Source: Ptychodera flava
Taxonomy: Eukaryota
NCBI RefSeq assembly: GCF_041260155.1
Contig: NC_091947.1
Span: forward strand, 31,706,780 to 31,770,779
DNA length: 64,000 bases
Direction: 5' to 3'
Part shown: piece after piece, positions 32,270 to 55,950 of the stretch
How the letters are laid out: the number at the start of each line of letters is the position of its first letter
Numbering within the stretch: the stretch's first letter is position 1
Program-made: the position numbers and the translations under genes
Notes under the pieces: model-generated
Databases searched by the model: none
Told to the model about the DNA's origin: nothing
What the model saw: the letters and a program-made list of their open reading frames with translations, nothing else

Positions 32270-33850
32270 TAAACATAGCCATAACTGTAAGACCAGATAT
32301 GAACTGTAAATGCTCATGTGTTTCATTATATATTGCAGTTATGTGTAAATTTGAACATTTGCCACATGTTTGCAACTTCATTGAAAGTATTATGATCAAC
32401 TTAATGAACAATAGTCACCACAGATTAACTCAATAGGTCATTAAGTATTCTAATATGTAATTAGCTGAAATAGAAATAATTAATTTCTTTGACTGCTATC
32501 ATTTTATCGCCATTTTATATAGCAAGTGTAATTGCCTTTGGTCAAGTCCTTCAAACTATATATTCCAAACTTTGAGAGCTCATTAGATATGCAAACTATA
32601 AATTAGCTGACATGAAAACTTAAGTGCGAAATGACTTCCAATATTGGTATAACCTGGTATAATCATCAATGTACATAGCATGTTATGCCAACTTTGATCA
32701 AATAAATCCAAGTATGTATCCCTAATTAGGAAAGTTAATTAAATACACACATTAGGAATTGGCTGAAGCAAAAATGCTTAATGCCTTTCAATAATGTTAG
32801 CCTACATAATAGTATCTTTAATGTGCATAGCAAGTTTCATCAATTTTGGTCATGTAAATTGAAATATATATCCCTAATTTCAAAAATTCATTTAATATGC
32901 AAATTAGGAGCTGGATAAAGTAAAAATGCTCAATGACTTTCAATAATGTCGTATCGTAGCATCTTTAATGTACATAGCAAGTTTTGTCAACTTTGGTTTA
33001 GTCAATACAGATAAATATCCCTGATTATGAAAGTTCATTAAATATGCAAATAAGGAATTGGCTAAAGTTTAAATGCTTAGTGACTTTCAATGATGTTCTA
33101 TCATAGTATCTTTAATGTACATAGCCAGTTTCATCAACTTTGGTCTCGTCAATTCAGATAAATATCCCTAATTAGGAAAGTTCATAAAATATGCAAATTA
33201 GGAATTGGCTGATGTAAAAATGCTGAATGACATTTAATAATGTTCTATCATAGTATCTTTAATGTACATAGCAAGTTTCATCAATTTTGGTCATATAACT
33301 TCAAATATATATCCCTAATTTCAAAAATTCATTAAATATGCAAATTAGGATTTTGATGAAGTAAAAATGCTAAATGACTTTCAATAAGGTTAAATCATAG
33401 TATCTTCAATATGCATACCAAGTTTCGTCAATTTGGTTCAAGTAAATTCAGATATATACTCCTAATTAGGAAATTTCATTAAACATGCAAATTAGTAATT
33501 ATCTTGCATGTCACCCCTTAATATCTTTCAAAGCTGATATATTTTGGTGTGATCAACATTTGTAGCGAATCTCATCAAATTGTGTGCAGTCGTTGGCAAT
33601 ATATATCAGTTTTTTCTAAAATCATTAATTATGCAAATGAGCAAAAAGTAAGCAAGCCACACCCACCAAGTTCTTGCCATTTGCAAACTGAATCTATGTA
33701 CCGGATTTGATGCTGATCTGATGAGCCGTTTTTGAGATATTGAGTATACAGACAGACACACAGACAGACAGACACACAGACAGACAGACATCGCTGCGAC
33801 GTATGCTCACGTGTGTCAACACGTGAGCAAAAAATGAAGGGTGATCAATT
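32270..33850 (+). mobile_element. ~1.55 kb satellite-carrying non-autonomous element (family X): 5' ccagatatgaactgtaaatgctcatgtgtttc…, ~8 tandem ~148-bp units (…tagcaagtttcatcaa.tttggtc…tccctaatt.ggaaa.ttcattaaatatgcaaattaggaattgg…), a (CAGA)n/(ACAG)n microsatellite, and a 3' hairpin gctcacgtgtgtcaacacgtgagc followed by aaaaaa
   Basis: Near-identical copies at 54430-55950 (+) and 47950-49580 (-); the structure was read directly. Confidence 0.85.
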
Positions 33851-34967
33851 AAAAGTGACAAGTAAATAGCACATGTACCGGTATATGGTATGTTGATGCC
33901 TACCCGATGTGATGACACTCAAGGGGAGATCGACCTTTCAAAAGGACATTGAACTACAGTAATCATACATATGAATAGCCATAGGTAACATCTCTATATC
34001 CCTGTAAGTTAGAAACAAGTTAACAAGCTTTCTCCTAATTCATTTACTGATTGACAGCTTCTGGCAAGCAAAGTTATATGAGTTTAGTTTTTTCCAAATG
34101 ATCATGATGTACGACTTGTTAGAGTCACACTCTATAATCTGTCTTCATGCTCTCTTTGAGGGGACAGAGACTGTTCTTATGGCTCTTATTCCACATTTTC
34201 TGCAGTTTCAGATACTTCCAGTCTCCTATTAAAAAGACTGACAAGCTAGGTAGTGGAATGTATGTTTTTTTTTAAAGTTTGTTTCCATATGCAATTGCAG
34301 ACCAAGAAAAAAAAAATTCATTGTGAAATCAAACTCATGTCAAATCATGGGCTGTGTGAATGACTTTGATACAGATATAAATTTTAAACAGTTTATGTAG
34401 CCAAACATCAAATTTGATAAAATTATCACACGCTGAGCGGCAATAATAATGGAAAATAAAAGTACTAAAAAAAAGAATAGTGTTGTTCCTAAATATTGAT
34501 CAGTATTTGACAGGACATTCTCACAGGACAACCTCTAATGAGTTCATAGGTTACAATTTAAACCATTTGTCTGTGAAAATGCATTTAAATTTAAATTGCA
34601 ATTGTCAATATATAATCTTTACCATGTTACGTAATTGCACAACTTCATTGGTGGGTTATTGTATTGTTTTTGAGTCGGAAGTAAAAATTACAGGTACAGA
34701 CACGTTTGCATTGATATTGTTTTATTTCCGGAATATAAAAGCCAGCAATTTTTTTAAAATTCATATTCAAGCTGTGCAGGGTCACAAATGCTACTGGTAC
34801 ATGAAATGAGGTTTACCAATCTGTCAGGTGGTGCCATGTGTGCGAGAGATTTTTTTGAGCTGGTAGACGTTTGTATAAATTTGGATATGTCAGCCTGCTT
34901 GACTACATGTTTGGTTTGATTTTATGTTAATTCATGACAGTTCTGATGGCATGTTTTTGAAAACAAA

Positions 34968-35402
34968 ATGGATGTGGAGTGTCATCAAGTTTCTCGTGGA
35001 AGGAGACACCAGCTTGATAATGGGAATTCATTTTCTCCAACAGCCATGCCATGGTCTGGTGTGGACATCGGCGGAACCCTTGTGAAGCTGGTATACTTTG
35101 AGCCCACAGATTTCATCAATGCCGAGCAGGAATATGAGGCTGAAGTGGAGACTTTACGGACTATCCGACATTATTTAACTTCCAACACTGCCTACGGAAA
35201 AAGTGGAATCAGGGACGTTCACCTCACGATAAAGGATTTTAAAATTCACGGACGCACTGGCAATCTCCATTTCATACGATTTCCAACGATTGACATGCCT
35301 GCGTTTCTTCAGTTGGTCAAATCCAAGAATCTTTCCAGTGTGGCTGACAAAATCTGTGCAACTGGAGGTGGGGCATACAAATTTGCAGAAGATGTGAGAG
35401 AG
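34968..35402 (+). CDS. PANK: Pantothenate kinase (PANK) first coding exon in window: [46 protein letters not shown]…[18 protein letters not shown] (145 aa)
   Basis: Contains the PANK motifs [19 protein letters not shown], TGx[15 protein letters not shown] and [10 protein letters not shown]. Donor gtaagt at 35403. An upstream alternative 5' exon cannot be excluded. Confidence 0.8.
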
Positions 35403-37280
35403 GTAAGTACAGTTATTGTCTCTCAAAACTCCACAACAAGATTTTGACATCCCTCCATCCAAGTATACATACCCTTATTATGTCCCAAATATTACAATGT
35501 AAATGTCAAAGTGTTAATTTTTATGGTATATATACTATTGGTTAAAGTGAAAATCGCAGCTCCATCTGCAATCTTCACTTATCACATTTGAATAGGTGTT
35601 ATGTAATTTAAACCTGTGCAACATCTTCAATTTATTAATTTGCTTTGTTTGTTGTTTTGCATATGGGCTGGAGGCCTTGAAAAGCAATAAATTATTATTA
35701 TTACTATTGGTTACAGGGTTCAAAAAGTCATCACCCAAGACCACTCACTAATTTGCTCACTTGAACATGAACATATGAAAAGAGATAATGTGTCATGTAC
35801 AGGAATAGACACGTCAGTAGTATTTAGAAGAATGGTTACTGGCAGTGAAATATCTATGTGTGTCCATTGTCCATTCTTTCTGACATCTCTTTTGAGATTT
35901 AAATTAATGATTTCTTTGTAAAAAAAATAGGAGTATGTTATCAATTATATGTGTCAGAGGTTTACTCTATACATTATTTCTACTGCGCTTTGATCATCGT
36001 TTATCCTATAAAGCTGTCTGGACTTTGAACTGTGCACGCGATGTAGAGTCAGCAGAGCATGTGCAATGAGGTCATTTTGAACTTGTTTCCTTGGGAAAAT
36101 TAGGCCTCATGATAATTCGCGTGAGGCAAAGCAGAGTGAACAAAAAATTTTCAGACATGATGTTCGGAATTGTTACTGGATTCAATATGTTGATACATTT
36201 CATGTGATTACGATTAATTACCCCAAATTTTCCTTTCTGTTGAATGCCATGTGATAATACTGATTACTTTCCTGCAGAGAATGAGTAAAAGTTTTGAGAT
36301 AGAATGAAGTTTGAACAATTTCTTTGTCAGACTTTGATTTTAAGTGTTTCTAGACATATACATGGTTAATTCTTTTACATTGCTTTTCACAAAATAAACA
36401 GAACTGCAGTACCTGCATTGTATGGCTTTCCAAATACTTGTATACTTTGTGAATTTTCTACCTTCCAGGAAAATGACCGTCTTTCCAAATGAAAGGCAAA
36501 TTGATACCAATTATACACAGCAATTTCTCAAGGTCAAAACACACAGGAATATACTACCTGAATTTCCAGTCATCATTGAATTAACTGTGTTATAACAGAC
36601 TTAGTCTAAATATTTTCAAGAAATTTTATTTTCATTCCCATTTGAAGTCTGACAAAAAACATGACATATTTTGAAATTAAAAACCTTCCGTCTCTTACTT
36701 TTAACGCATGTTATAGTCATTGCTGTTCAGTTAATGTTTCTTGTCTATGATTGATAATATTCTATCATTTTAAATGTCATGATAGATGAGATAATGGATT
36801 TCAATTTCCACATGCTATTTTATCCTTCCCTTCATTATACCTCAAGGATATCTAAATTTTAAATTTCAGCCAAACCTTTCATAGCAATCAGTCAATTTGA
36901 ATACCATTTTCATAATTGAGAAATGAATCATAATGAAAAAATATTCAAACTATGTTCCAGTTCCAACAAAGTTAATTGTGTTCATCAAAAAAACATAAAT
37001 TTGATGTTTTATGGGCGTTATCACTGGTTGGTCATCTTGATACATAGATCTTTTTCACTGATTTTCAGATTACTGTCAATTGAGGGGCTTCAATTTCAAA
37101 GTTGCCTTACTAATCAAACACTGATAATAAACAGGACAAGTTTCAAAGGCCAGGATATAAAGATATTTATAAATAAAACAAGTTTCCTATCCCAGTCCAT
37201 AAATTATGTATATATCTATATATATATTGTGATTATGACATCATCTTGACTTCATCAATCTTGCGTATGTTTTTTTTCAG

Positions 37281-37531
37281 ATCGTCAACATGAAACTAGA
37301 GAAATATGATGAGTTGGACTGTTTGATCTCGGGGATTCATTTTATTGACAGCAAAATACCCAATGAGTGCTACTACTGGGGCAATGTGGACCCTTTCAAC
37401 AGTGAAGCATGTGAGAAGATTCCGTATGATTTCCGTGATCCGTATCCGTACTTGGTGGTTAATATTGGCTCAGGTGTCAGCGTACTATCAGTGAAATCAC
37501 AGACTGACTTCAAGAGAGTTAGTGGGACCAG
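37281..37531 (+). CDS. PANK: PANK exon: IVNMKLEKYDELDCLISGIHFIDSKIPNECYYWGNVDPFNSEACEKIPYDFRDPYPYLVVNIGSGVSVLSVKSQTDFKRVSGT(+2 nt)
   Basis: Acceptor tttttttcag ends at 37280, donor ag|gtaagg at 37532; conserved LDCLIxG and NIGSGVSxL motifs. Confidence 0.85.
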
Positions 37532-38419
37532 GTAAGGAGGAGAAATTTGCTTCCACATTTAGACTTAAAGTTGTAAAACTGGGTTGTACAATGTGTCAAA
37601 TAAATACAATACGGGTGATGGTATCATTTTGAGCCATTGTCAGCTTTATTAATGTATAACCAATCTATCCATAGGAGCACATGTAAAGTTTGAATCCATC
37701 ATCTGTTAACAATATTTCATATGCCTAGATGTCAACTTCTCCTTGAAAAGCATGTTGATGACATGTAGATTTTGTGGGTTCCTGTGAATTAATTTATTCA
37801 GATTTTACATAAACTTGAACAAATCCATTTATCGGCATAATTTGTAACTATCCTCCTTTATCATCATGTTGCACTAGATGTAATTATTTCTTAGGAACTG
37901 TCACAGCGAATGGACCAATGATTTTATAACTATTGCTTGAAATGAAAAGTACAGTATGCTGCTTTTATTGTACAAAAAATTGCTGTGGCTATAGAAGATG
38001 TTTGCAGTACTGTAATAATACATATATCATAATACCAAAGTAGTGAGAGTAACTGCTAATATTTGTAAAGTACTGCTATAAAATTGTTATGGCTTTTAAA
38101 ACTTTTGCTTGCCAATATACATGTACACAGTAGTTCTTCTTTTCATGGCAATGCTGTATTCGATGTCATCATCTTGTAGACCAGGGATTTATGTTGGTGT
38201 AGACCATAAAATATAGCATACCAACAGAGTGTGTTAAGACATAAAATTTATCAGATAGCAGTCTTGGAAGTTGTAAATCATTAGTACCAGTGAACCAATG
38301 AGATCATTTGCATTTACCAGTTATGCTATCATGTTTCTTAGGTTTCATTGAGGAAATTCATCTTATGCATAATGTGTGAATGTAAAGTTCCTGTTTACAG
38401 AATGAGAATCTGTTTCAGT

Positions 38420-38990
38420 TCATTAGTATAGGATAAAGCCCGAGTACGAGGGCTCTTCTGGTATATAAAGTCCAACCCAACGATAAAATGTCGAGGCCGC
38501 AGGCCGAGACATTTTATCGTAGGGTTGGACTTTATATACCGGAAGAGCCCGAGTACGAGGGTTTTATCCGACTTAAAAACTATCGCCCCTAACTGATATA
38601 TTTTCGTTTTCAATGTGTTTACGTCAACCGTCCCCTTTGTCAATGTAACATGTTTAGGATATGAATTAAAACTTTTATTTGTGAAATAGCCTTCCAATGT
38701 AATGGAACATACTATAAATGCCCTAGGGCACATTATATAAATGCCCTAGGGCACAGCAGATTTTGTGTTGCAGCTGGTTTCCGCTGTGTTACCAAATTTG
38801 AATATTAAAACGTACCAGATGTCTTCAGAATATGACATGTTCACTTTTGATTGGACAGTACTTTACTACGGCGCTGTCATTCGTTTCTGGAATTTGGTGA
38901 CCAAGGCTTTATGAGTAAATAAAACACCCTGAATTGAGCACTCTGATTGGTCAATCAACAGTAGATAGTTTTTAAGTGTAGTATACTGTT
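38420..38990 (+). mobile_element. Second copy of the dispersed repeat seen at 10340-10990. It lacks that copy's 195-bp segment but carries a perfect 106-bp hairpin at 38440-38545
   Basis: Direct alignment to 10340-10990. The hairpin gggctcttc[t/c]ggtatataaagtccaaccc[a/t]acgataaaatgtc[g/t]cggcc [g/t]cggccg[a/c]gacattttatcgt[a/t]gggttggactttatatacc[g/a]gaagagccc is self-complementary. Confidence 0.8.
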
Positions 38991-41051
38991 TATGTAAACA
39001 AGAATCTTTGTGTATGTACTCTATATGTTTAAATACATGAATATTGGTAATGCATTAGGCGCCAGTGGGTAATATAAGTTTTATCTTAAAACCCATAGAC
39101 AGAAATGCACTGCATAACCTTGTTTGTGATGCCATAAATTATATTTTATACCGCTGAACAACTGAAAATATCACAAACATGTACCACATGTGCAGAGTTT
39201 GATATCTGATTCATATACCGGGATTAGCAAATCTATTTTTGTGTTCATAGGTTTCAGGACTGCTTTCAAGGCAAATCCAATGGGGCTTATCTATGTACTG
39301 GTGTATTGTTTATGATACAAATCACTGGGAATCATTGAAGGAGTGGGTTTTCACATTCCTTGATCCTGTTGAAAAAAACAAAATTGTAGTTCTGGATACT
39401 TGGCCATTGGTCTTGCTCTACACTGTGTTCATGTAATGCAAACATGACGTAAGCATTGCATATCCATAATGTCATGACAGCTCTAATGAAACATGAAAAA
39501 GAGTATCAAAAGGGCTCATGAACATCTGTTGAATGTGAAATATTTTTGTTGGTACGACGGTTGGCAACAGCTGGTAGCTTTGTCTGCTACAAAGGGTGGA
39601 CAAAAGTTAGTTGATTCAAATAGTGAATACAACAAATACTATTTGGAAATTTAATTGTTGAATTTTTTAAAACTGACAAAAGACAAATGGTTATTAAAAT
39701 CTAAGGTATTATTATCACAGGTTTCACCAATGCTAATGTAGCTACAGACTGGAGGTATTAAATATTTTGATTTGATTGTTCAAAGTTTAATTTTGTAGCA
39801 TTGTTATAAATCAGCTAATATGTATGCAAGTCAAATAATCTACAAGCAAAATTTTAATTCAGTGAAATTGGTAAAATATGAGTATTTTCAAATACGGAAA
39901 TTTCATTTGTTTCAAAAATATTAAATTCCCACTTTCCTCAGTATAAGGCTGGCTCTATCAAGGACAAATTAAAGGGTTTGCTAACTTTGGCAATGGAAAG
40001 TTCTGATGTCTTTGTTTCCCCAAAGGTTACAGTTGACAATTTGTAACTTCAGAAGTCAATGAACATGCAATGAAACATCTCCCAAAATAAGTTCCTATAG
40101 TTGATACATTATACTTCCAAATCCTGTATGATCATGAGTTACAGACTGACAAGTGTCTGTCGTTCAAAATATCAAAGTTGTATTCCATATTATGTTGTTG
40201 TTGTGAACATAAGATTGTTATACTTTTGGCAATGTCATAGAGGTGTTCAATAAAGTTCCCCTTGATTAGCATAGGAATATCATGTGCAAATATGGAAACA
40301 ATACAGACTTATGGCGCTGTAGTTGAGGCAAAGTCATTTTATAAGATGCATCTGCGTCGCACCCTCCTTTGATTGAGTTGCGTAGGATGAAATCCTTAAA
40401 ATAAGGGGGGAAGGGGGGGGAAACATAAGTCTTATAAGTCGCACCCCTTTTTCTGCACAGCTATCACACTACTAACTACCATTGAGGTTGACTCTGTTCA
40501 CCAAAAATTGAGTAGTCAGACTACGATCACCGTCTTTCATACTGCTATGGCACACATACCAAACGGCCCTTTCAGGGCCACCACATCCTCCAAAAGAAAA
40601 CTACCGTAATCAAACTCTTCTTTAATTTTGCAATAGAGCCAACTTCTATCAGTAATCCTCCCCCTAAAAAAATAAAATGAGAATTTCCATGTTATTGGTG
40701 TCATGCCCACTTAAAAAACACAAAAACGTACACATTGTAAGTTGCATCCCTTCTCTGGAGAAATCAAGTTCAAAATTTGCAACATCATAATAAAAGATGC
40801 ATCTTATGTAATGACTTTAACGGTGATTTATCCATTCATTTAATAGTATACTCACATAGATGAGTTCACTCATGTTTTTTAATAAGCATTGTGATGCTCT
40901 TGTTCTGAGTAATTTTGAGTAAATACAGTTTTCATAAACATGCAGACAAAATTGTGAGCTGTACAACCAATGGCAGATCAGGAGAGCTGTAACATTCTAT
41001 AAACTTCAAACAGTCACAGACGTTTGATCTTCATGTGTTTCCTTTCTTCAG

Positions 41052-41228
41052 TCTTGGAGGAGGAACATTCCTTGGCTTGTGTTGTTTGTTGACTGGATGT
41101 CAGACATTTGAAGAAGCCATAGAACTAGCCGAGGTCGGGGACCATACCAAGGTGGACAAACTGGTACGGGATATTTATGGTGGCGACTACGATCGTCTAC
41201 ATCTTCCTGGCTCTACTGTGGCTAGCAG
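41052..41228 (+). CDS. PANK: PANK exon: (S)[58 protein letters not shown](+2 nt)
   Basis: Acceptor ttcttcag ends at 41051, donor gttagt at 41229. Near-identical to vertebrate PANK ([38 protein letters not shown]). Confidence 0.88.
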
Positions 41229-41566
41229 GTTAGTAACTACATGTAACAGTGTCCAGTTGCAGACTGTGAATTCTGCGTTCTCGTGGCAGAATGAAAAACA
41301 TCAGGGAGTCAGAATTCTTCGATAATGGAGTGCCTGTCTTCTAATGGTGTTGTCTAATGTGGAGGTGTTTTGGTTAAAAAAAAACATAAACAAATATTTT
41401 GTATGGTAGATTCCAAAATTATGCTAATCCATCATACGGTGTTTACGTTGTTTAAATACTTTTGTTTTCAAAGAGAGTTGTCAACCGTATCCATTCTAAT
41501 ACTAGATAGAATCTCAGCACTTTGATTCTGTAAGTGTTGATTCAGAAGGTATTATAATTTTTCCAG

Positions 41567-41690
41567 CTTTGGACACATGAATGTACCGGAAAAGAGAGAG
41601 TCGGTCAGTAAAAACGACCTGGCTAGGGCCACACTCGTCACAATAACCAACAATATTGGTTCAATTGCAAGGATGTGTGCGTTGAATGAG
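41567..41690 (+). CDS. PANK: PANK exon: (S)[41 protein letters not shown]
   Basis: Acceptor ttccag ends at 41566, donor gtaata at 41691; conserved [25 protein letters not shown]. Confidence 0.88.
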
Positions 41691-42223
41691 GTAATAACTT
41701 GTCACATGGTATTGAATACTTGTACTGAATTTTATCCTTTTTGTTTACTTAAGACAATATTCAGAAATACTGACAAAATACTTTGCCAGGAAAAAACCAA
41801 ACCAAACACATTTCACACAGTTTGGATGTTAAATCTCAAACACAGTTGATTAATGTACACGTTAATAAAATCGGCTAGCATTTCACGCCATTAAGGCCTT
41901 CGAGACTTTGTTTGATTTTCCAAAATTTCTTAACATTCTGCAGTTAGCATACATTCTGTTGACTTCACTGTACTTTGTAAAAACTTTGTCTGACACATAA
42001 TAATGTACATATAACATCTCAGAGATGATAAGGGAAACAGTTTAAAGCAAGATATTTAATATCTATGGTATCATTCTATAAATGTATATATCTTCATTCC
42101 TTGTTGTGTTTCTGAATCAAAATATCATCGTAAACTAAGCAGTTAGAGTAAGTGCTAGTCATACTGTGCTGATGCAAGATAATCATGTTTACATCGTTTG
42201 GAAAAATGTATTCTTCTTTGCAG

Positions 42224-42349
42224 GGTATTGAGAGAATAGTATTTGTCGGTAATTTCCTACGGGTGAATCCGTTGTCAATGAAACTCTTATCTTATGCCAT
42301 GGAGTATTGGTCACAGGGTGCTCTAAAAGCTCTATTCTTAGAACATGAG
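42224..42349 (+). CDS. PANK: PANK exon: [42 protein letters not shown]
   Basis: Acceptor ctttgcag ends at 42223, donor gtgagc at 42350; conserved. Confidence 0.88.
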
Positions 42350-43041: not shown

Positions 43042-46000
43042 AATTTTCTCACCATCGACACCAGATGGCGCTGCTTGTACAGAAGAAGAGGTTTTAATAT
43101 TCCAAATTTGCTCTTCCTGGACCAAAGGGGATTTACATTGTAATGCCAGTATCATTGTTGGGAAAATGCAGAACGGGAAAAATTCAACTCGCTTTTAATT
43201 CCATAAGGAAAATGGTATTATTTATTTGATATGCAAATTCTGTGAATTGTTTTATACAGATTGACTGTTATTGAAAGATGTTACTGCTGAGTGTTGTAGA
43301 TGAATGTAGAAACACCGTTGTTCATTTGTCAGATTGACACACAGTATCCAGTGCAAATAATACTGCAACTATAGATAATTATCTATCAGGTAACAATGAC
43401 AGAGACATTGAACAATGAAATTGCAGGTACAACTCACACAAAACTCTACATAGAACTTATGTACTGGAATACTTTGTGAGCACAAAACCACAGGGTCAAA
43501 GTTCATATGGAGTAACCAGTCAGAGAAATGATGGCTTTTTAAGAATGTAGCAATTTTTAGACATGACAATGAAAACAGAGAATTCAGTCTCAGAGATATT
43601 AATAATTAATGATCAGATGAATTGTTTGAAGTTGATTTGAGTGAAGAACTGAGCAGACCATTGCTAGATCCAATGGCTTCCCGTCTAGTAGTCCCTTTAG
43701 AATCACCTGCCATGCCTTTGGTTTCTGTAAGCCCTCCAGTCTACAAGTTTATGATTTCTTTAGACAAATCAATTGAGCTGGCTGTTTCTTTCAATTGGGG
43801 TCGGTAGAGCAGACAATTATCAGAACTGCCAACTGTTACCCTGTTAGCTCAGGCTAGGAATGATAGATGTATGTCATGCATGCTTCGACCAATCAATGAA
43901 TGTCTTAATCGTGGTGCTAGCCATGTTTAAGGTGGTGCTAAGAAAACAGTATTGTGATTGGTGAAATTTGAATAATTTGGATATTAGGGCAAAGAGGAAA
44001 CATTCTCTGTTGTAGACAAATAGGCTGTTGCTCTGATTGCGTGTTCCATCATTGTGTCCTATCTGTGGAAGAAATGTAAAGTAATGGTAATTGAAAGTAA
44101 TGAATGAAAAGTAGATGGTGTCGCCTAGGCAATGTAAAATTTCTGAGAAGTCCTATGGTCTTCCATGAACTCTTATATATAAATATTACATTCCACTCAC
44201 TCTTTTTATCAATAGTTTACAACTCCTCTCTGCATTTGATTCAGAGAGTTGCTTCTTTCTGAAAGGATTTGCATTCCTTATGAGGGCGCTGTTCAGGATG
44301 CATTCATTGATGTCTATTTTGACACAGTGTGTGTGTTGAAGGTCTTGTTGTCACACATTATGCATCATAGAGCTCTTCTCGGACAACGTTGTGTTCTCTT
44401 TCATAGAGTTTACAACTCAATATTTCTTTGTTCAGGGTCACTGTTTAGTTCATTAAACTTCATGTGTGATACCTTTAAGGTGAAGTACTACAAATTACGT
44501 CAAAATTAGGTTGTGGTGTCATTTTCTTGAAACTTTGCACAAATATTCTTGGAAGTTGTGCAAGTGCAAAAATGAAATAAAAAATGGGGGTCACCACGCT
44601 CGTATAATTCACTTAAACTAAAGAAAGCAATTATAAAACGCTTAGCAAATGAGTTAATTTTAATAAATACCAAGAATTAAGATCCATATCTATCGAATGT
44701 ATAGTTTTCATGATGTTTGTAAAGAAATTTTAACATAAGTATCGATTAAAAAATGACGATATCGAAATTATATCACTACATAATTTTCGAACTTACTTCC
44801 TGTCGCTTTGAATGGTGTCATTTTGACCAAACTTGGCGAATAAAATCCTGACATAATACCATTTAGTTTACACTTTTAATAAAGGGGTGTCACCACGCTA
44901 CTTTTTACAATATCTCCAGGTGAATGGGTAATATGCGCCATGTAAATGGAAGAGAAATGTTAATTTTGCGCTCATATTGAATAAAAACCAGCTTCCTAGG
45001 GGGTCAAAATATGACAAGGTTAAAGGTCACATGTATTTCTAAGAGACTGGGTCAAAAAATTAGGTAAAAGCGCAATTTCAACAATGACAGGTGATGTTAA
45101 ATACATGCGCTACAAAATAACCCATTTGCGGCAGGCTGGAGTTAAATCTGCGCAGAAATGTTCTAAAGCGTGTGCGCGTCCGAATTCGTCGCCCTTTACC
45201 TTAATGCATGCTTCATCCCCGTTTTTGAATTTTCAGTTCCAAGCCTGCGATTTAAAACAATTGGAGAAAGTCCAATAATGTCAGGAAAGGTTTAAATAAA
45301 TATGTTCTCAAAAAAAGAAATGAAACAAAACTTGCAAAAGAGGTCTGAAAATAATCTAAAAACTGATAAAAAAGTACTTCTTGTTTATACCAGTCAGTCA
45401 AGGGCTAGTCAGAAATGTGTGTTTGCTTCACTTCAGTCCAATCTCTCACTGTAGTTAGAGTTGTGTATTAAGATAAGGATGGATAAATGCAGAAAAAATG
45501 CTGCACAACATCCACCCAGTCATCCAGTCATTCTCTCCACAACTGGTACCTACTAGAAACTCATGTCCATGTTTACCAAAAGTCGAAATCAGAAATCAAC
45601 CACCAGGCATCAACCATTCAAAAGGGGAGAATTTACTTCAGGTGCTTTTGAAATTGCTAGTGTGGAAAAAAATTGAATTTGAAGACCACTGCTAATGAGT
45701 GATTCAAGAATATACACCACCACAAGTTTGTTCTTGATTATTAAAATAGGGAAAGGCATGCAAGATTATCATAAACGCACACTGTATTGACAACTGTATG
45801 AAAGTTGATTTTTGCATAGAGTCTTCGTGATAGTAAACATTCATCAAATGTACAATGTGCGACTTTACAGAGTTTTGATGAGCGTTATCCGTGGAAGCTG
45901 GATAAATATTATTGACATATTGTATAGGGAAAACTTTATCATAAGAAAAAAGCTTATACCCCAACAACAAGATGATACTGTACAGTACTATTCAGAGTAT

Positions 46001-47949
46001 TGTGTTGTCCTTCTGAAATACATTTGTTATCAAAGTTGAAATCAGTGCAGAAATCACAAATACAAAACCATTTGATCCATTTTATCTGGGTACGACTTCT
46101 TGTCAGAATGATCATGTCTCACTTACTGTAAACTTTGGATGTTGTTGTAAAGTAAATAACGAACACAAAGACCCAGCATCCAATAGAACTGAAATAATTG
46201 ACCCTAATGTAGTACTTATATTCGACTGATCTTTTTGGTAATAATGTGATTTCTACATTTATTGTTGAATGTCTTTCTCACCCCATATATTCTATGTAGC
46301 CATACCTGAATTTCAACATAATTTCTGAGCAGAATCCACCTTGATTCTGAACCATAGTGGTACATATAAAGATTTAAGCTTGAAGGCTGAAGTTGTCAGT
46401 GTAGCATGGTTACAAGGTCTTTTAATTATAAAGAAGTCATTTATTCCAATTTTATTCCATTGTACAGGTGCATTTCACAAAGATGTTTATGTAAAGAGCT
46501 AGTAAACCTAAACCATCAAAGAATATATCATATAACTTGCACAGCGACAAAGATATTGTCATATTCAGAATTTCTTGAAATTGTCTCTTCTACATCAGCT
46601 TTGCCTGATGGGAAATTGTGACTGCCAAACAGATCCTCATCAACCTTCTAAAAATTATATGCTTGAAGATGAGTATCATTATGTAGGTTTTAAAACTTTC
46701 ACTCTAAGACTTTGTTCCCTTCTGTTCTTCTTAGACAGCATTGTCAGACCAATAAAAAGTGGAAGGGATACTTTTGTAATTGTCTTTGACTAATGTGGAT
46801 TTGGAGAGAGCCATGATGAAACCTGGTATCTCAAAATTTCTGTTTATTTTAACAGACATGAATGAACAGTGGTAAAAAACATATAAGCTTGGACGATTTC
46901 AACTCCATGAAGCATTTTATTTTTATCCTCTGATTTTTTAAAATGAAAGCTAAGCACTTCATTCAATGTTGAGATGTTGATGTAATTTTTACACATGAAA
47001 TACTGCCACCATTGATAATCCATTCTGGAAAGTAAGTAAAATAATTAATATTTGTTCAAAATCAAAAGGAATATTCAGTGATACATATTCCTTTCCCAGG
47101 ATTATTCAGGGTCATGTTATACAATGTCTGTTTTCTTCTGTTTATTCATGTCAAACTGTATGTGTTCAGGGGGGTGGGGTGGGGGGTATGAGGACAATAA
47201 CACCTCGACATCTACCACACATTAAGGCCAGGGTTTTTGATTCCAGGGGTAAATATCCTATAATGGGCTGGGGGTATTGATCAAAAAATGTTGGATATTA
47301 TGAACTATTTGTTAAATCAAGTGTCAGTGTTGTTTGTTAAATGTTGACTTTGATGACAATGCTAAGTAGCATAAACCTCTCTCTCTCTTAGTCTCACTAC
47401 AAACCTTTTTGGCGTTTGTTGTTTAGTTGTAGTTCACACTTAGCTGCTAGTTCACTTTTAGGTGAAAAAATGTCAAAATTGTTGACCATCAAGTGTAATA
47501 ATTTTATTTAATTTAACTTTGCTGCAATATTTAATCATATCTCAGCTTTTAAAACTCAGAAGGGAATTCACCATTTGCTATAACTTTATATAACTCTCTG
47601 TGAACCCAGTTGGGTCAAATTTGATCTTCAATCAAATCTAAGTAACAATTTCACATTGTTTAAAAGCAAATGGTTTGTTCTTTAAAAACTGCAATAAACT
47701 CCTCTGTATATATTTTAAGAACTTTTTGTAAAATTGCAAAATCTGTAAGCCTTCTATCAGTGTCAAAGTAGTGAATTGTCAAACTCAGTGTTTTAAGGTG
47801 TAAGATAATGCGAAATATTGGTAAACATGATTTACAGTGTATGAGTAATATGTTGAAGACCAAACATCAATAAACTACACTCTTGTCAATATTGATGTTG
47901 TCTTTGCTGTGTCCATTGTCAGTCAATTCACTCAAAATCCTGGCATACC

Positions 47950-49580
47950 CAATCTCATAATGTCATTTTATCTGCTCACGTGTTGACACACGTGAGCATA
48001 TGTCGCAGCGATGTCTGTCTGTCTGTGTGTCTGTCTGTCCGTCTGTCTGTCTGTGTGTCTGTCTGTCTGTGTGCTCAATATCTCAAAAACGGCTCATCAG
48101 ATCAGAATTAAATCTGATATATAGATTCAGTTTGCAAATGGCAAGAACTGATTAGTTTTTGGTGGGTGTGGCTTGCTTACTTTTTGCTCATTTGCATAAT
48201 TAATTATTTTAGAAAAAACTGATATATATTGACAACGATTGCACACAATTTGATGAGATTTGCTACAAATGTTGATCACACCAAGATATATCAGCTGTGA
48301 AAGATATTAAGGGGTGACATACATGTAAAAGATAATGAATAATTTGCATATTTAATGATCTTTCATAATTAGGGATATATATCTGATTTGACTTGATCAA
48401 AATTGACAAAACTTGGTATGTATATTGAAGATACTATGATTTAACATTATAGAAAGTCATTAAGCATTCCTACTTCATCAAACTCTTAATTTGCATATTT
48501 AATGAACTTTTGGAATTAGGGATATTTATTTGAATTGACTTGACCAAAATTGATGAAAGTTGCTATGTACATTAAAGATACTATGATATAACATTGTTGA
48601 AATTCATTAAGCATTTTTACTTCAGCCAAATACTTATTTGCATATTTAATAAACTTTTCTAATTAGATACATAAATCTGAATGGACTTGACCAAAATTGA
48701 TGAAACTTGCAATATACATTAAAGATACTATGATATAACATTGTTGAAAGTCATTAAGCAGTTTTACTTCAGCCAAATACTTATTTGCATATTTAATAAA
48801 CTTTCCTAATTAGATACATAAATCTGAATGGACTTTACCAAAGTTGATGAAACTTGCTATGTACATTGAAGATACTATGATATAACATTATTGAAAATCA
48901 TTAAGCAGTTTTACTTCAGCCAATTCCTTATTTACATTTTTAATGAACTTCACTAATTAGGGATATATATCTGAATTGATTCGACCGAAGTGGATGAATC
49001 TTGCAACATATATTGAAGATACTATAAAACAACATTATTAAAAGTCATCGTTTACTTCAGCCAATTCCTAATTTGCATATATAATGAACTTTCCTAATTA
49101 GGGATATTTATCTGTATTGACTAGACCAAATTTAACAAAACTTGCTATGTACGTTAAAGATACTATGATACAGCATTAAAAGTCATTAAGCATTTTTACT
49201 TTAGCCGATTCCGTATTTGCAAATTTAATGAATTTTCCTAATTAAGGATATTTATCTGTCTTGACTAGACCAAAGTTGATGAACTGCTTTGTACATTAAA
49301 GATACTATGATACGACATTATTGAAAGTCATTTAACATTTTTACTTCAGCCAATTCATAATTTGCATATTTAATGAGAACATTTCAGTCAATTCCTAATT
49401 TGCATATTTTAATGAACTTTCCTGATTGGGGATATATACTGGGATTTAAAATTAATCTGTGGTGAATATTATTCATTATGTTGATCATAACACTTTCAAT
49501 GAAGTTGCAAACATGTGGCAAAGGTTCAAATTTACACATAACTGCAACATATAATTAAACACGTGAGCATTTTCAGTTCA
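47950..49580 (-). mobile_element. Family-X satellite-carrying element in inverted orientation (hairpin gctcacgtgttgacacacgtgagc and (CTGT)n at 47960-48070; ~148-bp units 48300-49400; 5' end ~49556-49580)
   Basis: Reverse complement of 32270-33850 and 54430-55950. Confidence 0.85.
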
Positions 49581-51844
49581 TATCTGGTCTGCAAAGTTGT
49601 TTGAAATCACTTGCCAACAGGGTTCTAAGATATTTCCCTTTTCATAGTGCATTCTGTGATCAATTTCCTTTTCATAGTGCATTCTTTGATCAAAGTGTGG
49701 CATCTTCATCATCTTGTACATCGCTATCAATATCACTGCTACTATCACTGTTAATTTTATGGTATTCATACCCAATAAATAATCTACAAATGATTTTGGA
49801 AAAGGATCCAAAGTAAAGCACTAAGCTCTATTGGTGAAGAAATTTTGTTGTCAGAAATATACGTGCTGAAGCAAACAATCTGTTCGGAGTGAAAAGTAGA
49901 TCTTTTGTTTGTCAAAGCAACTCTACTGATTTTGTTCCTGTCTGGTCACTTAAAAAAATGGTGTGACAATATTCACAAAGTCTCTTGAACAATTCAGTAT
50001 ATAATCCATATACAAGCAGTTTATAGACAAGTATTGGACAGGGAGTGTATTGGCAAGAGCATAAAGGATATATCAAAAGAAAAAAAATTTAAACATTTTT
50101 TGGAGGAAATACGAACTATTCTTCCTTCAAATATTGTTTTGATTTTTTTTTTCTGTTGATTTATCCTTCCTTTTTGCTCTTGCCAATACACTCTTGTCCA
50201 ATATTTGACTATAAACTGCTTGTATTTATGGATTATGTGTAGTGATCTTGAAAGCTTCAACATGAAGTGATTGAAATGGCGGAAATAAGTAGAAAGACTA
50301 TCATTACAGTGTCTCTCATTGAATGTAGGTATTGACATAGACAAAGATGCTATGGATATATGTGACAAGTTGGACCAAGTTACATGAGGGATGGGTGATT
50401 TAATATCTAGGGGTCTTGCAAAATGTTTGAATAAAAAGAACCCAAATGACAGAAAATTTTTGTCAGCAGGCCAAAGTCAATCAGAAGTAATTTCCCTTTT
50501 GGCACACTCTTTCAGCACTTTTTGTCAATTTTTTCAGCAATTTCATTTCAAGTACCTCTCTGGCCCTAAATATCAAAGAGTATGAATACCATGTTACCTT
50601 TATTTATAATTAAGAGGCAACATTTGAAAAACTTTTGAAACGTTTGCACTGGTCCTCAGCAAATAATTCTCACTAAAGCTGGTTGAAATGCCTGTTAATT
50701 TGGTCAGTAAATACAGCCGTTTTGGCCAAGCAGTTTTGTATGTGGCTTCTAAATGGGTGTTGTACGTTGCGAGTTCGAACCCAATTGAAAACACGGTAGT
50801 TATATCATGTGAGCACCACATGCTTAATTCTTTGGTCTTTTACATCATGACTTGTCTACAAAAGTTCTCTACATGGACTGATTGCATTGTTAGAAAAATT
50901 ATTTAGACGACTGCAGCCAAAGAATTTCGTTGTCATGTTGTATGTCGTACAGTGTCAACAAAAATATTTGAAAATCATTCCAAGTTCAACAGTCACTCTC
51001 CTTGAAAGCATTGAACAAGAGACATAATTAATTGAACTCCATGAACTTTATTAACTTTAAATCACACAATAAACTTAATCTATATAACTCTTCAAACATG
51101 CTAGTATACAGATACACAAAAACAAATCAAGGGTCAACAATGCTTGTAATTGTCACTTACTGTCCACGCATTTGAACCTTTCTTGCTGGCACTCAAAGCC
51201 ATGTGTGTATCACCTTTGCTTTGTTATCTGTATATTTTTGCTTTGGCAGTTGGATTGATATTTGATGCTGATTCTGCTGTTGTAGCCACCTGCTTTGGTT
51301 TTCTTTTATTGCTCCTGGAACACTCGCTTAAATTTCAAAACACACCACTGAAGTTTCAAAGTTCTCTTGTGAAGATCGAGTTACCAACCTGCTAAATGTC
51401 CTGTAGGGGATAGATTATTCTGTCGTAAGTTGAACACGAGAGTATAGTAGCTTTGGTGTTTTCAGGTATGGGTCTGAATAAGTTCTGCTCGCTGGAGGGG
51501 TGTCTATGCGTCACCAGCACTCCAGCAGGGGTTGTAGAGGGCACAAATCTGTTTACAGTACACTCTTCCCCGTCTTGTTGAGCAGGCCAAAGCTGTACCC
51601 GCAAACTGGAAGAGATTGAAGTGAGCAAACAAAACACAAAACAAAAAAAAACAAGAGACAAAAGTACACAGAACCTTCTTCTAGGTCTTCCGAGTGGGAC
51701 TATTCCCAGTGGGGCTCCCTTCTCTGAATGGGATGTTCTGTACTGGCTGTGTGGATCTTTGTGGCACAATACCACATGGGGCTTTACCTTGGGTATATGC
51801 CCCCTTATGGTACGAATCACTCCCAGATCTTCAAGCCTTCCTTC

Positions 51845-52736
51845 TCAACACCGGTATAGATGGCGGGTGTTGGCCATCGCCGTCTGCAGTAGCTGCTGGA
51901 CATCGCCACTGCGGTGTTTTACCACCACCAGTGCTACATCACCAATATATGCAGGGGTGTTAAATCGCTGACCTGGTCTGGGCATCAGGTAGGGCGAGTC
52001 TGTTTCAAGGAGGATCCGGTCATTGGGGATTTGGCTCAAAGCATTTGCCTGCACACAGTCAAAGCTGGCCACCATTGCTGAAAAACTAAAATAGCAATTG
52101 GGGAATGCCTGGCTCCACCGTCTGAAGGTATATATGTTCCCCATGAAGTTGTGAAGATGTATCCGTTGCAAGGGGTCACATGCTTCCCTCATGGACAGTA
52201 GAGCTAAAGCGTATGTGTCGGAGGCATACTTATCTTCCTCAGTGCCACAAATATGGAGTATAATGGGCTTGTTGGGATTTGCTAGCTTAAGGAGTTCACG
52301 GAAGGCCTGCTCCTGCCAAAGCCATCTATCGCTGCTCACCGTTCTATCAAGACCGATTTCCCCTAGGGCTGCCACATGTGGGGATGCAACAAAACTCCGG
52401 ATTTTCCGGAACACCTGCATGCCCGCGTCAGCAGCCACCTTGGGGTGGAGACCAACAGCCACTTTCCACCCTGGTTCCCGAACCAGGTCTTGGGGGTAGC
52501 ATTCTGGGTCGCTGTAGACTTCGACACCTCCGACCACTTGGACAGGAACCAGTGGTCGAACACCAGGGTTTGCGGAGATCAGCTGCGACGAGGTTGTGAA
52601 CCCGCTACCCCTTCGGAATTGGTTAATAGCCTGATCTAGGTGAAAGTGAGCATCCATGGCTTGAGGTAGTAACGGTCCCCTGGTGATGACGGCTTCTTGT
52701 CTTCTGCTCACCTGGAGGGATGCGAGTCTCTCCAGA

Positions 52737-52768
<32 letters not shown>

Positions 52769-53674
52769 GTGGGGAGGTTCCTCGATGGCTTTGCCCTTCC
52801 ACTTTCTGACTCTCTCCCTATCAAGGGGGGTCAAGTCAGACAGCAAAACTGCAATGACCCTCCAGTGGACCAGCACTGCGGGAGTGCTTGGTGGGCTCAG
52901 CCGAAGCTTCCTGGGTACCTCCCAGTCCATTCTGCGGCACAGGCCCTCGATTGTCCGCTGGCAGCCTTCAGTGATTTTGGCACTGAGTGGGACTCTCGCA
53001 GACCCATGGGCCAAGAAGTATTCGAACAAGGCCACTATGGGCATACTCGGGCCGACCAACTTGCCAGTGAGGAATTCCAGGAGGTCAATTATGGAATCAT
53101 AATCAACACACCTGGGGTCCTCTCGGAGGCATCGGGGGAGATGTTTCCGAAAGCAGTGCTCCTTGACTCCCTTTGATTCATGGAGGCATCCGGGGAGGGG
53201 GCATGGAGTGGGTTTGCGTGGGAAGAATGTTCCAGCTCCCTTCTCTCTCTCTTTCCATGGGCTGGTCTCCTCCTCCTTGCATTGCTTTTCATTCCTGTTC
53301 TTGCCTTCCCTCTCCTGGTTTTCCTCGCTGATTCTCCTAGCAAGCCGTTGGCGCCGTTGTCTCCGTTTGGAAGCCTTGGTCAGTTTTGGCTTGACCACTA
53401 TTCCCACTGGCTCCAAGCTTTCCATGGTCTTCCCCTGGTCCCCAATGGGCTGGCCTGTTGCACCCGACAATGTGGAGATGGCCTGTTCCCTTTGGGTTGC
53501 CTGGGGTCGACGGCTGGTCTTGCTTGGGGTGGGCGGTGGGGGCATGAGCCATTTGTCAAAGTGGGGATCTGTTCTGGACACTGCAGCTACTGGGGGCTTG
53601 ATGACATAATCCTCAGATGAGGTGTCCTCCGAATCAGATGTGAATTGGAACAGGTGAGTGCTTGATGTTGCCAT
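51845..53674 (-). CDS. Intronless ORF encoding an N-terminal extension plus a TatD-family metal-dependent nuclease domain (~609 aa from Met 53674; the uninterrupted ORF extends upstream to Met 53851, 668 aa). The N-terminus is Ser/Glu-rich with a basic KRRQRRQRLARR stretch, CPLPGCLHESKGVKEHCFRKHLPRC and poly-Ala. The C-terminal half carries the TatD motifs DAHFHLD, ALGEIGLD, ILHICGTEED, HNFMG and LLETDSPYL
   Basis: The single ~2 kb ORF is from the supplied six-frame track. I recognise the TatD signature residues (His pair in DxHxHLD, Glu in GEIGLD, His in HxF, Asp in ETD). The + strand ORFs overlapping it are antisense artefacts. Confidence 0.7.
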
Positions 53675-53879
53675 TCTCGTCGACAACACACTGAAAAGAA
53701 ACAGAAAAGAAACAAATTTAAAAATCATACAAATCAATGCAGCTTGGGCAGAGGAAATCACCCCAATGTGTTTTTCTAGAGGTGTCATTCCCCAGTATTG
53801 TGAAGACCAAGTTACCATTACGTGCTCCTGTAGGGGGTAGTCACTTCTCACGAGTAGGTTGACATCCCTTCAGTAGTTC

Positions 53880-54420
53880 TTGAGATACCGGGTTTACAGA
53901 CAGACACACACACACACACACACACACAGACATCGGTAAACCATATGCTCATTTGTGTGTGAACACGTGAGCAAAAAATTGAAGATTTCATCAAATTTCA
54001 ATATATCACACTAGGACAACCCCTAGGAACCTGTATACCAAATATCAAAGGCATCAGACAAGTAATTTTTGAGAAACACATTTTTTGACCAAAAATGGCA
54101 CAAATTGCACAAAAAATACAAAATTGCAGATTTCATCATATATTCAATACCTCATATTAAGTTCATCTGTAGGAACCTGTATACCAAATATCAAAGCTGT
54201 CAGACAAGCGTTTTTTTTTTAAATAAAAATTTGACCAAAAATGACCAAAAAATTCCTTAAAAATACAGATTTGCATATTTTATCACAATTTGAACAAATC
54301 CAAGTTGGGTTATCCCTAGGGACCTGTATATCAAATATCAAAGCTGTCTGACCAGCGGTTATGAAGAAGATTTTTTACCAAAAATGCCTTTTTTGGCGCT
54401 AATTTGCATATTTTCAACAA
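53880..54420 (+). repeat. Microsatellite (CAGA/CA)n plus hairpin gctcatttgtgtgtgaacacgtgagc plus A-run (a family-X-like 3' end), followed by ~3 tandem ~115-bp units (…cctgtataccaaatatcaaagctgtcagacaagcg…ttgaccaaaaatg…caaaaaatacaaa.ttgca.atttcatca…)
   Basis: Direct reading. The same 115-bp unit recurs at 56190-56470 (+) and in reverse orientation at 62270-62560 and 63340-63600. Confidence 0.75.
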
Positions 54421-54429
54421 TATCAAAAA

Positions 54430-55950
54430 ATTTAAAACCAGATATGAACTGTAAATGCTCACGTGTTTCATTATATATTGCAGTTATGTGTAAATTTGAA
54501 CCTTTGCCACATGTTTGCAACTTCATTGAAAGTATTACGATCAACATAATGGACATAATTCACCACAGATTAACTCTATAGGTCATTAAGTATTCAAATA
54601 TGTAATTAGCTGAAAAAAATATTAATTTCTTTGACTACTGTCATTGTATCACCACTTTATATAGCAAGTGTAATTGCCTTTGGTCAAGTCCTTCAAACTA
54701 TATATTCCAAACTTTGAAAGCTCATTAGATATGCAAACTATAAATTAGCTGACATGAAAACTTAAATGCGAAATGTCTTCCAATATTGATATAACTGGTA
54801 TAATCATCAATGTACATAGAATGTTATGCCAATTTTGATCAAATAAATCCATGGCAAGTATATATCCCTAATTAGGAAAGTTCATTAAATACAAAAATTA
54901 GAAATTGGCTGAAGCAAAAATGCTTAATGCCTTTCAATAAAGTTAGCCTACATAATAGTATCTTTAATGTACATAGCAAATTTCATCAATTTGGTCATGT
55001 AAATTCAAATATATATCCCTAATTTCAAAAAATCATTAAATATGCAAATTAGGAGCTGGATGAAGTAAAAATACTTAATGACTTTCAATAATGTCGTTAA
55101 TGTACATAGCAAGTTTCGTCAACTTTGGTCTAGTCAATACAGATAAATATCCCTGATTATGAAAGTTCATTAAATATGCAAATAAGGAATTGGCTAAACT
55201 TCAAATGCTTAATGACTTTCAATAATGTTCTATTATAGTATCTTTAATGTACATAGCCAGTTTCATCAACTTTGGTCTCGTCAATTCAGATAAATACCCC
55301 TAATTAGGAAAGTTCATAAAATATGCAAATTAGGAATTGGCTGATGAAAAAATGCTTAATGACATTTAATCATATTCTATCATAGTATCTTTAATGTACA
55401 AAGCAAGTTTCATCAATTTTGGTCATGTAACTTCAAATATATAGCCTTAATTTCAAAAGGTCATTAAATATGTAAATTAGGATTTGGATGAAGTAAAATG
55501 CTTAATGACTTTCAATAACGTTAAATCATAGTATCTTCAATATGCATACCAAGTTTTGTCAATTTTGATCAAGTAAATCCAGATATATACTCCTAATTAG
55601 GAAATTTCATTAAACATACAAATTAGTAATTATCTTTCAGGTCACCCCTTAATATCTTTCAAAGCTGATATATCTTGGTGTGATCAACATTTGTAGCGAA
55701 TCTCATCAAATTGTGTGTAGTCGTTGTCAATATATATCAGTTTTTTCTAAAATCATTAATTATGCAAATGAGCAAAAAGTAAGCAAGCCACACCCACCAA
55801 AAACTAATCAGTTCTTGCCATTTGCAAACTGAATCTATGTACCAGATTTGATTCTGATCTGATGAGCCGTTTTTGAGATATTGAGTACACAGACAGACAG
55901 ACAGACAGACATCGCTGCGACATATGCCCACGTGTGTCAACACGTGAGCA
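54430..55950 (+). mobile_element. Third copy of the family-X satellite-carrying element (ends …(cagacaga)n catcgctgcgacatatgcccacgtgtgtcaacacgtgagcaaaaaa)
   Basis: Near-identical to 32270-33850 over its whole length. Confidence 0.85.

Follow-up and report, generated by a model that had tools for sequence, protein, structure and literature searches.

The architecture, target preference and satellite cargo of Helentron-associated elements (HINEs) are established for the DINE-1/HINE elements of Drosophila, Culex and mites and for the bivalve pearl and Cg_HINE elements (PMC4067079; PMC7492417). The parts of a HINE follow each other in the order of terminal Ts, a 5′ subterminal inverted repeat (subTIR), a complementary inverted repeat (IR), a microsatellite, optional tandem repeats, a 3′ subTIR and a 3′ stem-loop. 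Their targets are oligo-T or TT sites, which are not duplicated upon insertion, and the terminal Ts belong to the element and vary in number (PMC4067079; PMC7492417). In oysters, the Cg_HINE microsatellite is built from GTCY, GTCC or GTCK motifs (PMC7492417). Among acorn worms, Saccoglossus has known Helentron proteins (Thomas et al. 2014, PMC4067079). DINE-1-like repeats of sea urchins are reportedly of the same kind as these elements. Here we describe a repeat family, termed X, in a stretch of 64,000 nucleotides from the hemichordate Ptychodera flava (contig NC_091947.1, positions 31,706,780 to 31,770,779), which is called the window below. We assign family X, with a probability of about 0.85, to the non-autonomous HINEs of the DINE-1-like kind. 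This assignment, which is made from sequence, is proposed because the order of the parts fits the published definition of HINE, DINE-1 and Cg_HINE elements, the target is a T-run, no target-site duplication (TSD) is present and the family has no coding capacity.

An earlier sequence-only reading of the window had described three copies of about 1.5 kb and one solo end. The observation of three full copies and one end fragment is confirmed. Copies X-A (32292-33834, 1543 bp) and X-C (54437-55955, 1519 bp) run from 5′ to 3′ on the minus strand and copy X-B (47968-49588, 1621 bp) on the plus strand, and fragment X-D (~53868-53976, minus strand) holds the 5′, or left-flank (LF), module only. The copies had been placed almost correctly; the end of X-B was set at 49580, 8 bp short of the terminus at 49588. 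Sensitive searches of the 64-kb window found no X copies beyond these four.

The three full copies contain ~30% G+C. Copies A and C are 93% identical, whereas B shares only ~81% with either of them. This lower value arises because the array of B differs, as its non-array modules are still 92-97% identical to those of A and C. The boundaries are sharp in all three copies: in the orientation of the sequence-only reading each begins with ...ACCAGATATGAACTG and ends with GCTCACGTGT-GTCA-ACACGTGAGC and an A-run, and an alignment of A, B and C shows that the sequence outside these termini is unrelated between copies. The shared termini and defined boundaries claimed before are hence real and not ragged. 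With at most one mismatch, the 10-mer ACACGTGAGC occurs 12 times in the window, compared with 1.7 expected occurrences, and nine of the 12 fall within X copies.

The anatomy of the family becomes readable on the strand opposite to the one used by the first description. Here, T6 is directly followed by the 5′ subTIR GCTCACGTGT, a TGAC loop and the complementary IR ACACGTGAGC. The 5′ subTIR pairs with its own IR and forms a hairpin (TGCTCACGTGT-TGAC-ACACGTGAGCA) with a stem of 11 bp, a loop of 4 nt and a folding energy of -11 to -15 kcal/mol. Compared with shuffled sequences, its z-score ranges from -2.2 to -4.9 in A, B and C, while the hairpin is decayed in D. The hairpin reported for the conserved end is thus present in all three copies, with its 11-bp stem, and the run next to it exists as well. 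However, what had been taken as a terminal hairpin and A-run at the 3′ end is the 5′ end once the other strand is read. In B this run reads AGATAAAA, whereas A, C and D have A6.

A 16-nt spacer separates the IR from a (GTCT/GTGT)n microsatellite of 24-60 nt. Then follow a module of ~270 bp, which contains a decayed monomer and is conserved among the copies (94-97% between microsatellite and array), and the central part with five to eight well-kept tandem units of 147 bp plus degenerate edge units. The 3′ part comprises ~130 bp of unique sequence, the 3′ subTIR ACACGTGAGC and the terminus ATTTACAGTTCATATCTGGT. The 3′ subTIR lies 20 nt from this end; B and C carry it unchanged, and A differs from it at one position. 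The 3′ terminus corresponds to the ...ccagatatgaactg which had been regarded as the 5′ end. A unit length of 148 bp had been proposed, and Tandem Repeats Finder (TRF) sets the period at 147 bp. The copies do differ in microsatellite length, as stated earlier (42 nt of ACAG/ACAC in A, 60 nt in B and 24 nt in C), and in D the microsatellite is mostly (AC)n. The supposed difference in composition between CAGA and CTGT is an artefact of strand, CTGT being copy B on the plus strand.

In X-A, the 5′ T-run is located at 33829-33834, the hairpin of subTIR and IR at 33805-33828, the microsatellite at 33748-33790 and the tandem array at ~32370-33691 (TRF core 32668-33500; nine units including the degenerate edge units). 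Its 3′ subTIR (ACACATGAGC, 1 mismatch) occupies 32312-32321, and the terminus is found at 32292 (...CATATCTGGT). X-B starts with a T-rich junction (TCATTTTATCT, 47963-47973), followed by the hairpin (47974-47997), the microsatellite (48012-48070), the array (~48137-49451; TRF core 48340-49376), the 3′ subTIR (49559-49568) and the terminus at 49588. The corresponding parts of X-C are the T-run (55950-55955), the hairpin (55926-55949, with one G-T wobble), the microsatellite (55887-55910), the array (~54515-55822; TRF core 54859-55631) and the 3′ subTIR (54457-54466). X-D consists of T6, the decayed hairpin, a (TG)n/(TCTG) microsatellite and a ..GGTATCTCAAGAAC box. It is ~80% identical to the LF module of X and has neither an array nor a 3′ end; its neighbours are an array of another family, Z, at an A/T-run on one side and a GC-rich TatD gene on the other. 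We also observed that the palindromic hexamer CACGTG, an E-box-type motif, occurs up to three times per intact copy, in the subTIRs and the IR. The subTIRs that bear it lie at 33805-33828, 47974-47997, 55926-55949, 49559-49568 and 54457-54466.

The insertion site of copy C provides the most direct view of the target. X-C is nested in a family-Z element, and a second Z copy on the opposite strand (62090-62541) is uninterrupted and 92% identical to the flanks of X-C over 214 bp and 125 bp. The paralogous empty site is an unbroken T8/A8 run at 62324-62331. In short form, the filled site reads ...AAAAAATTTAAAA, then the 1512-bp core CCAG...GAGC (54438-55949), then AAAAAACTG..., and the paralogue reads ...AAAAAATTAAAAAAAATAG... 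In a longer form, ...ATCAAAAAATTTAAAA and AAAAAACTGTTTCTC... enclose an insertion which extends from CCAGATATG to ACACGTGAGC, and the empty site is ...ATCAAAAAATTAAAAAAAATAGTTTCTC... Given this precise and uninterrupted paralogue, the 1512-bp core sits inside the homopolymer run, an A8 run which is T8 on the element strand and which has become T6, the element and T4. X-C was therefore inserted into the T8/A8 run of another HINE without a TSD, with an ambiguity of 0-2 nt due to the homopolymer.

The remaining junctions agree in composition. In four of four cases the 5′ junction is T-rich, with TTTTATCT in B and T6 in the other three; the 3′ junctions of A, B and C all continue with T, and X-D also abuts an A/T-run position of a Z unit. 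When the junctions of A and B were compared, no TSD of 3 nt or more was found. It had been suggested to look for A/T target sites and for the absence of TSDs; the absence is borne out, but the insertions lie in T-runs and not at A/T. Likewise, the Helitron-type rolling-circle nature that had been considered stands in part. Family X appears to be mobile, to belong to the rolling-circle superfamily and to insert without TSD, yet it is of the Helentron type and not canonical, with no 5′ TC and no A/T target.

Three further families of the window, F1 with 226-bp units, Z with 146-bp units and W, have a 5′ layout like that of X: T5-8 and (A)G, after which come a hairpin, a spacer, a microsatellite of the GTNN type and a box with ..ATATCT... 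Judged by this pattern, at least three other putative HINE families share the X-type 5′ layout. Family F1 is found at 1-1905, 14270-16636 and 16960-17135. Its 5′ ends, on the reverse strand of 16530-16636 and 16985-17135, show T5-AGTCCCCA..GGGGGA as a hairpin, together with (GTCC/GTGC)n. Of its two 3′ ends, one lies at 1872-1905 on the plus strand and the other at 14270-14310 on the minus strand; both carry the canonical subTIR GTGGGGACT, which is complementary to AGTCCCCAC at the F1 5′ end, a 6-bp stem-loop and TTGTT. The 3′ stem has been kept by compensatory change, with GTCATT/AATGAC in one copy and GTCATC/GATGAC in the other. F1 thus has two distinct structures, a hairpin by the T-run at its 5′ end and a stem-loop kept by compensation at its 3′ end, and this settles the direction in which the layout common to the families is read. 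In every family the microsatellite adjoins the end with the T-run and the hairpin, and the HINE orientation therefore holds for X too.

These data bear directly on the first alternative, in which X is a rolling-circle element in the orientation of the sequence-only reading. In that case the hairpin would act as a 3′ terminator, located ~6 nt ahead of an A-rich 3′ end, with ACCAGATATG as the 5′ end. The only strong hairpin of X does lie at that end, canonical Helitrons carry a 3′ hairpin near their terminus, and the opposite terminus, which is ...CTGG/T on the other strand, happens to fit the Helitron CTRR-T. However, an element oriented in this way has no 5′ TC and no A/T target, as its insertion is in a homopolymer run. 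Moreover, the hairpin arm recurs as a subTIR at the other end, the microsatellite is placed beside the hairpin as in the left flank of DINE-1 and Cg_HINE, and the sister family F1 combines a 5′ hairpin by the T-run with its separate 3′ stem-loop. We consider the reversed orientation improbable. A canonical Helitron was also tried and rejected, as the 5′ end of X consists of the T-run and GCTC, its 3′ CTGG fits CTRR but has no adjoining hairpin, and its target is a homopolymer.

An element of the HINE kind would depend on proteins encoded elsewhere. The largest open reading frame (ORF) in X encodes at most 85 amino acids, and none is common to the copies. A Helentron protein with Rep, helicase and endonuclease functions, supplied in trans, would recognise the subterminal repeats, and one strand of X would be mobilised by rolling-circle transposition. 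The insertion would take place in oligo-T tracts without duplication of the target. T-runs within arrays of other HINEs make good targets, and the nested cluster of this region results from them. Once inserted, the arrays and the microsatellites are altered by slippage and unequal exchange, and the copies have thereby come to differ in unit number and microsatellite length.

For the putative driver, a synthetic Helentron query was composed from the published motif alignment of the Saccoglossus Helentron, with motifs read by optical character recognition. It retrieved P0078, a P. flava protein of 253 amino acids which matches Pfam PIF1 and represents a fragment of a PIF1-type helicase. Its helicase motifs Ia (VLLTAPTGVAAFNI) and II (ILIIDEISMVDKKLL) are identical to those of the Saccoglossus Helentron, and motifs I and III are nearly so, while all differ from the Helitron and yeast PIF1 versions in the same alignment. 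To judge from these motifs, P0078 attests to a Helentron lineage, past or present, in the P. flava genome; a link to the X termini forms no part of this evidence. The other proteins returned by the synthetic query were short as well (up to 337 amino acids), and a full-length P. flava protein with Rep, helicase and endonuclease was not recovered. An exact-match scan of metagenome contigs with the 24-nt hairpin gave 0 matches.

Several observations weigh against the assignment of X to the HINEs. First, there are only three and a half copies, all of them inside one stretch of 24 kb. Second, the single empty site is paralogous, with flanks of 92% identity, and its boundary is uncertain by 0-2 T. 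Third, the 3′ end departs from the expected design: the 3′ stem-loop is weak, with a stem of 3-4 bp, the last 61 nt of the element fold no better than shuffled sequences (z-scores of +0.6 to +1.7), and the 3′ subTIR is situated ~20 nt from the end in contrast to 38-60 nt in mite HINEs. The candidate 3′ palindrome amounts to CAG-N7-CTG, or to ACAG/CTGGT with a bulge.

The tandem array makes up most of each copy, and its history was traced through pairwise comparison of the individual units of all copies. Every unit of A is closest to the unit of the same rank in C (90-97%), whereas neighbouring units within a copy share only ~65-88%. The units B7, B8 and B9 at the proximal edge of B match units 7, 8 and 9 of A and C at 86-97%. 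Units B5 and B6 are 95% identical, which indicates a local duplication, and B does not have the two most degenerate distal units of A and C. The edge units are much further from the consensus than the central ones, and the decayed unit lies in the otherwise ‘unique’ module before the microsatellite. In three of three copies, the 147-bp units keep a constant orientation relative to the flanks. Because A and C match unit for unit, the array must already have been present in a master element and have been transposed with it. The comparison thus shows the satellite-like array to be cargo, fixed in the master copy and copied with the element.

Other explanations fare less well. A SINE-like (short interspersed nuclear element) or otherwise retroposed origin, with a structured 3′ tail and a short poly-A, had been offered on account of the A-run after the hairpin, and the non-coding nature of the element would suit it. 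Nevertheless, neither the reconstructed empty site nor any of the copies shows a TSD, the A-run has six bases throughout in A, C and D and does not vary as a tail would, and a tRNA, 5S or 7SL head is absent, with negative tRNA and Rfam scans. Subterminal inverted repeats are also foreign to SINEs. We regard such an origin as very unlikely, and the earlier suggestion of a SINE tail is abandoned. A miniature inverted-repeat element of the terminal inverted repeat (TIR) type was rejected as well, as the repeats of X are subterminal and asymmetric (0-6 nt versus 20 nt from the ends) and no TSD is present, unlike in the element with TIRs and TSD at 14842-15992.

Between copies B and C lies an ORF on the minus strand (51845-53851) which encodes 668 amino acids with a C-terminal TatD_DNase domain. 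In NCBI, an ‘uncharacterized protein’ of Ptychodera flava matches it with 100% identity, which marks the window as DNA of a hemichordate and not of a prokaryote. The ORF is GC-rich (~50-60% against a background of ~35%), apparently intronless and contains a Cys/His-rich stretch. A single paralogue was found in P. flava, with 48% identity across 29% of the protein. A homologue with 30% identity, P0003, which was the sole informative relative found, directly follows the integrase gene of a putative long terminal repeat (LTR) retroelement on ENA contig L001 (10001-12280), where it takes the env-like position and is preceded by genes for protease, reverse transcriptase (RT), RNaseH and integrase, in this order. 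A 90-bp direct repeat, at 2373 and 13244 of the contig, marks the two ends of this retroelement. No pol genes were found near the TatD ORF of the window, the ORF itself being the only match there to the L001 retroelement proteins, and a TatD nuclease as an extra ORF of retroelements was not found in the literature searched. As a separate observation, a foldback segment of ~236 bp with 81% identity between its arms (50001-50236) is located between copy B and the TatD ORF.

The arrangement of B and C, inverted around this ORF, had led to the proposal of a mobilisable unit of 7.9 kb bounded by the two copies. In its fuller form, the inverted pair or the 5′ end of D would mobilise the TatD segment 47968-55955 as a unit, a notion that gains some appeal from the D 5′ module, which immediately precedes the ORF on its strand, and from the known gene capture by Helentrons. 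Copy C was, however, inserted alone into family Z and has its own empty site. B (47968 to 49588) and C (55955 to 54437) converge 3′ to 3′, which is unusable for a strand-specific rolling circle that proceeds from 5′ to 3′. Neither an X-type 3′ end nor any other X module was found between 49589 and 51845, and no second copy of the segment was found. The TatD paralogue is too distant for recent copies to exist. TatD is furthermore absent from the genes reported in Helentrons, and it is within an LTR retroelement that a homologue occurs. B and C represent independent insertions, and reading the inverted pair around TatD as a functional unit is not supported; we give the composite element very little credence.

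The place of D upstream of the TatD ORF on the same strand permits bolder speculation. It might reflect a Helentron-style capture or transduction, or the donation of a promoter or 5′ untranslated region; in a milder version, the wider point would be an ancient HINE layout common to the hemichordate and to molluscs. To us these ideas are long shots. If the capture were true, a rolling-circle element would have picked up a nuclease gene derived from a retroelement. If the shared layout of HINEs that carry tandem repeats (T-run, hairpin of subTIR and IR, GTCY microsatellite and nucleosome-sized monomers of 146-147 bp) were ancestral, it would represent an ancient conserved design by which satellite DNA is also seeded in deuterostomes.

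An ordinary dispersed satellite or a segmental duplication with no mobility of its own is scarcely credible, for although most of each copy is 147-bp tandem array and the three copies fall within 24 kb, both boundaries are sharp and identical with unrelated flanks, the unique terminal modules retain 92-97% identity, copy C has a precise empty site and the copies occur in both orientations.

The HINE reading of X is set in a region rich in related repeats. The host of X-C, Z-1 (53977-56155, minus strand), is composed of 146-bp units at 53977-54436, then X-C, then a segment at 55956-56155 with a pre-microsatellite box, (GTAT/GTGT)n and the hairpin CTATAGACTATAGTCTATAG plus TAGCTAAAAA; Z-1 is the context of the nested insertion and stands outside family X. 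The second copy, Z-2 (within 62090-62541), contains a perfect (ATAC/TGTA)n of 71 nt (62153-62223), and the opposite strand has more Z-like units near 63355-63585. Three HINE 5′ ends, those of W (~56790), Z-1 (~56155) and X-D (53976), are arranged head-to-tail on the minus strand within 53977-56790. Each of them abuts the array of the previous element, whose 3′ end is not recognisable. This chain could be due to T-run targeting inside arrays or to rolling-circle read-through. The pre-microsatellite module of W is related to the Z units, with alignment scores of 5-9 standard deviations above shuffled sequences. The same module of X was considered as the source of the 146-bp Z monomers and rejected, its alignment scoring only ~2-2.7 standard deviations above shuffles.

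Other repeats were noted in the window. An element of 1151 bp (14842-15992) with perfect 12-bp TIRs (CAGGGTTCTGCC / GGCAGAACCCTG) is inserted in a unit of an F1 array and flanked by an 8-bp TSD (GGTGTACC) at 14834-14841 and 15993-16000; from these features it looks like a non-autonomous, hAT-like cut-and-paste transposon. A 26-bp minisatellite (GCCTTATACATGGGAGTCTATGGACT, 6.9 repeats, 97% identical) spans 16697-16876 between two F1-type 5′ ends. A direct repeat of 300 bp, 99% identical over a distance of 28 kb (10372-10671 and 38546-38845), holds a duplicated 23-bp motif (..ATAAATGCCCTAGGGC..) and is probably another young interspersed repeat. Finally, an exon-like stretch at 2154-2300 matches Pfam HSP70 (E = 1.7e-20), and the window therefore starts inside or beside an Hsp70-family gene.

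Family X adds a member to a kind of element that is well described in oysters and flies, and it reveals no new mechanism. Its particulars are the conserved microsatellite-proximal module, the weak 3′ stem-loop, the subTIRs built on CACGTG, the monomer of nucleosome length and the close nesting among sister families. With X, satellite-carrying derivatives of Helentrons, described until now mainly from Drosophila and bivalves, are extended to a hemichordate. A literature search found no paper that joins Helentrons with Ptychodera, and the chromosome-level genome paper of P. flava treats repeats as broad classes only. At least four HINE families, packed and nested in 64 kb, suggest a major class of repeats in this genome, one that is probably under-annotated and to which generic pipelines are likely to give the labels ‘satellite’, ‘unknown’ or ‘Helitron’. 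In this region, HINEs account for the dispersed 147-bp and 226-bp arrays and for the microsatellites.

Of the closest known systems, canonical Helitrons share with X the rolling-circle superfamily, the lack of TSDs, a terminal hairpin motif and a non-autonomous form that carries foreign sequence. Unlike them, X has no 5′ TC and no hairpin that precedes a 3′ CTRR on the same strand by 10-12 nt, and its target is a T-run in place of A/T. SubTIRs are present in X and set it further apart.

The DINE-1/HINE elements of Drosophila, Culex and the mite Metaseiulus (PMC4067079) are another of these systems. In these, as in X, subTIRs of 10-15 bp are found a few nucleotides from the 5′ end, an IR is nested at the 5′ subTIR, a microsatellite follows and central tandem repeats are optional. 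Their TT or T-rich target is left unmodified, and the number of terminal Ts is variable. The subTIR of X has the palindromic core CACGTG, and mite subTIRs are also palindromic at their core. In contrast to X, for which none has been identified, the Helentron partners of these HINEs are known and share >95% of their termini. Besides the shorter distance of the X 3′ subTIR from its end compared with mite HINEs (~20 nt versus 38-60 nt), the 3′ stem-loop of these elements is marginal in X and clear in its sister family F1.

A third system comprises Cg_HINE of oysters (2020, PMC7492417) and the older bivalve elements pearl, DTC84 and MgE. Like these, X is non-autonomous and has a left flank made of 5′ subTIR, IR and a 4-nt microsatellite of the GTCY type, a centre in which a few satellite-like monomers form a short array and keep their orientation, and a right flank with the 3′ subTIR. 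The GTCT microsatellite of X falls within the GTCY/GTCC/GTCK motifs of Cg_HINE, and the monomer of the oyster cluster CL6 is 147 bp long, as in X. Insertion into oligo-T without TSD, frequent insertion into other repeats and the presence of several related and unrelated families per genome are common to both. In contrast to Cg_HINE, X has only a weak 3′ palindrome, and its stretch between microsatellite and array is conserved (94-97%), whereas the Cg_HINE counterpart is described as highly variable. The hosts also differ, one being a hemichordate deuterostome and the other a mollusc, and the likeness noted between their elements concerns layout.

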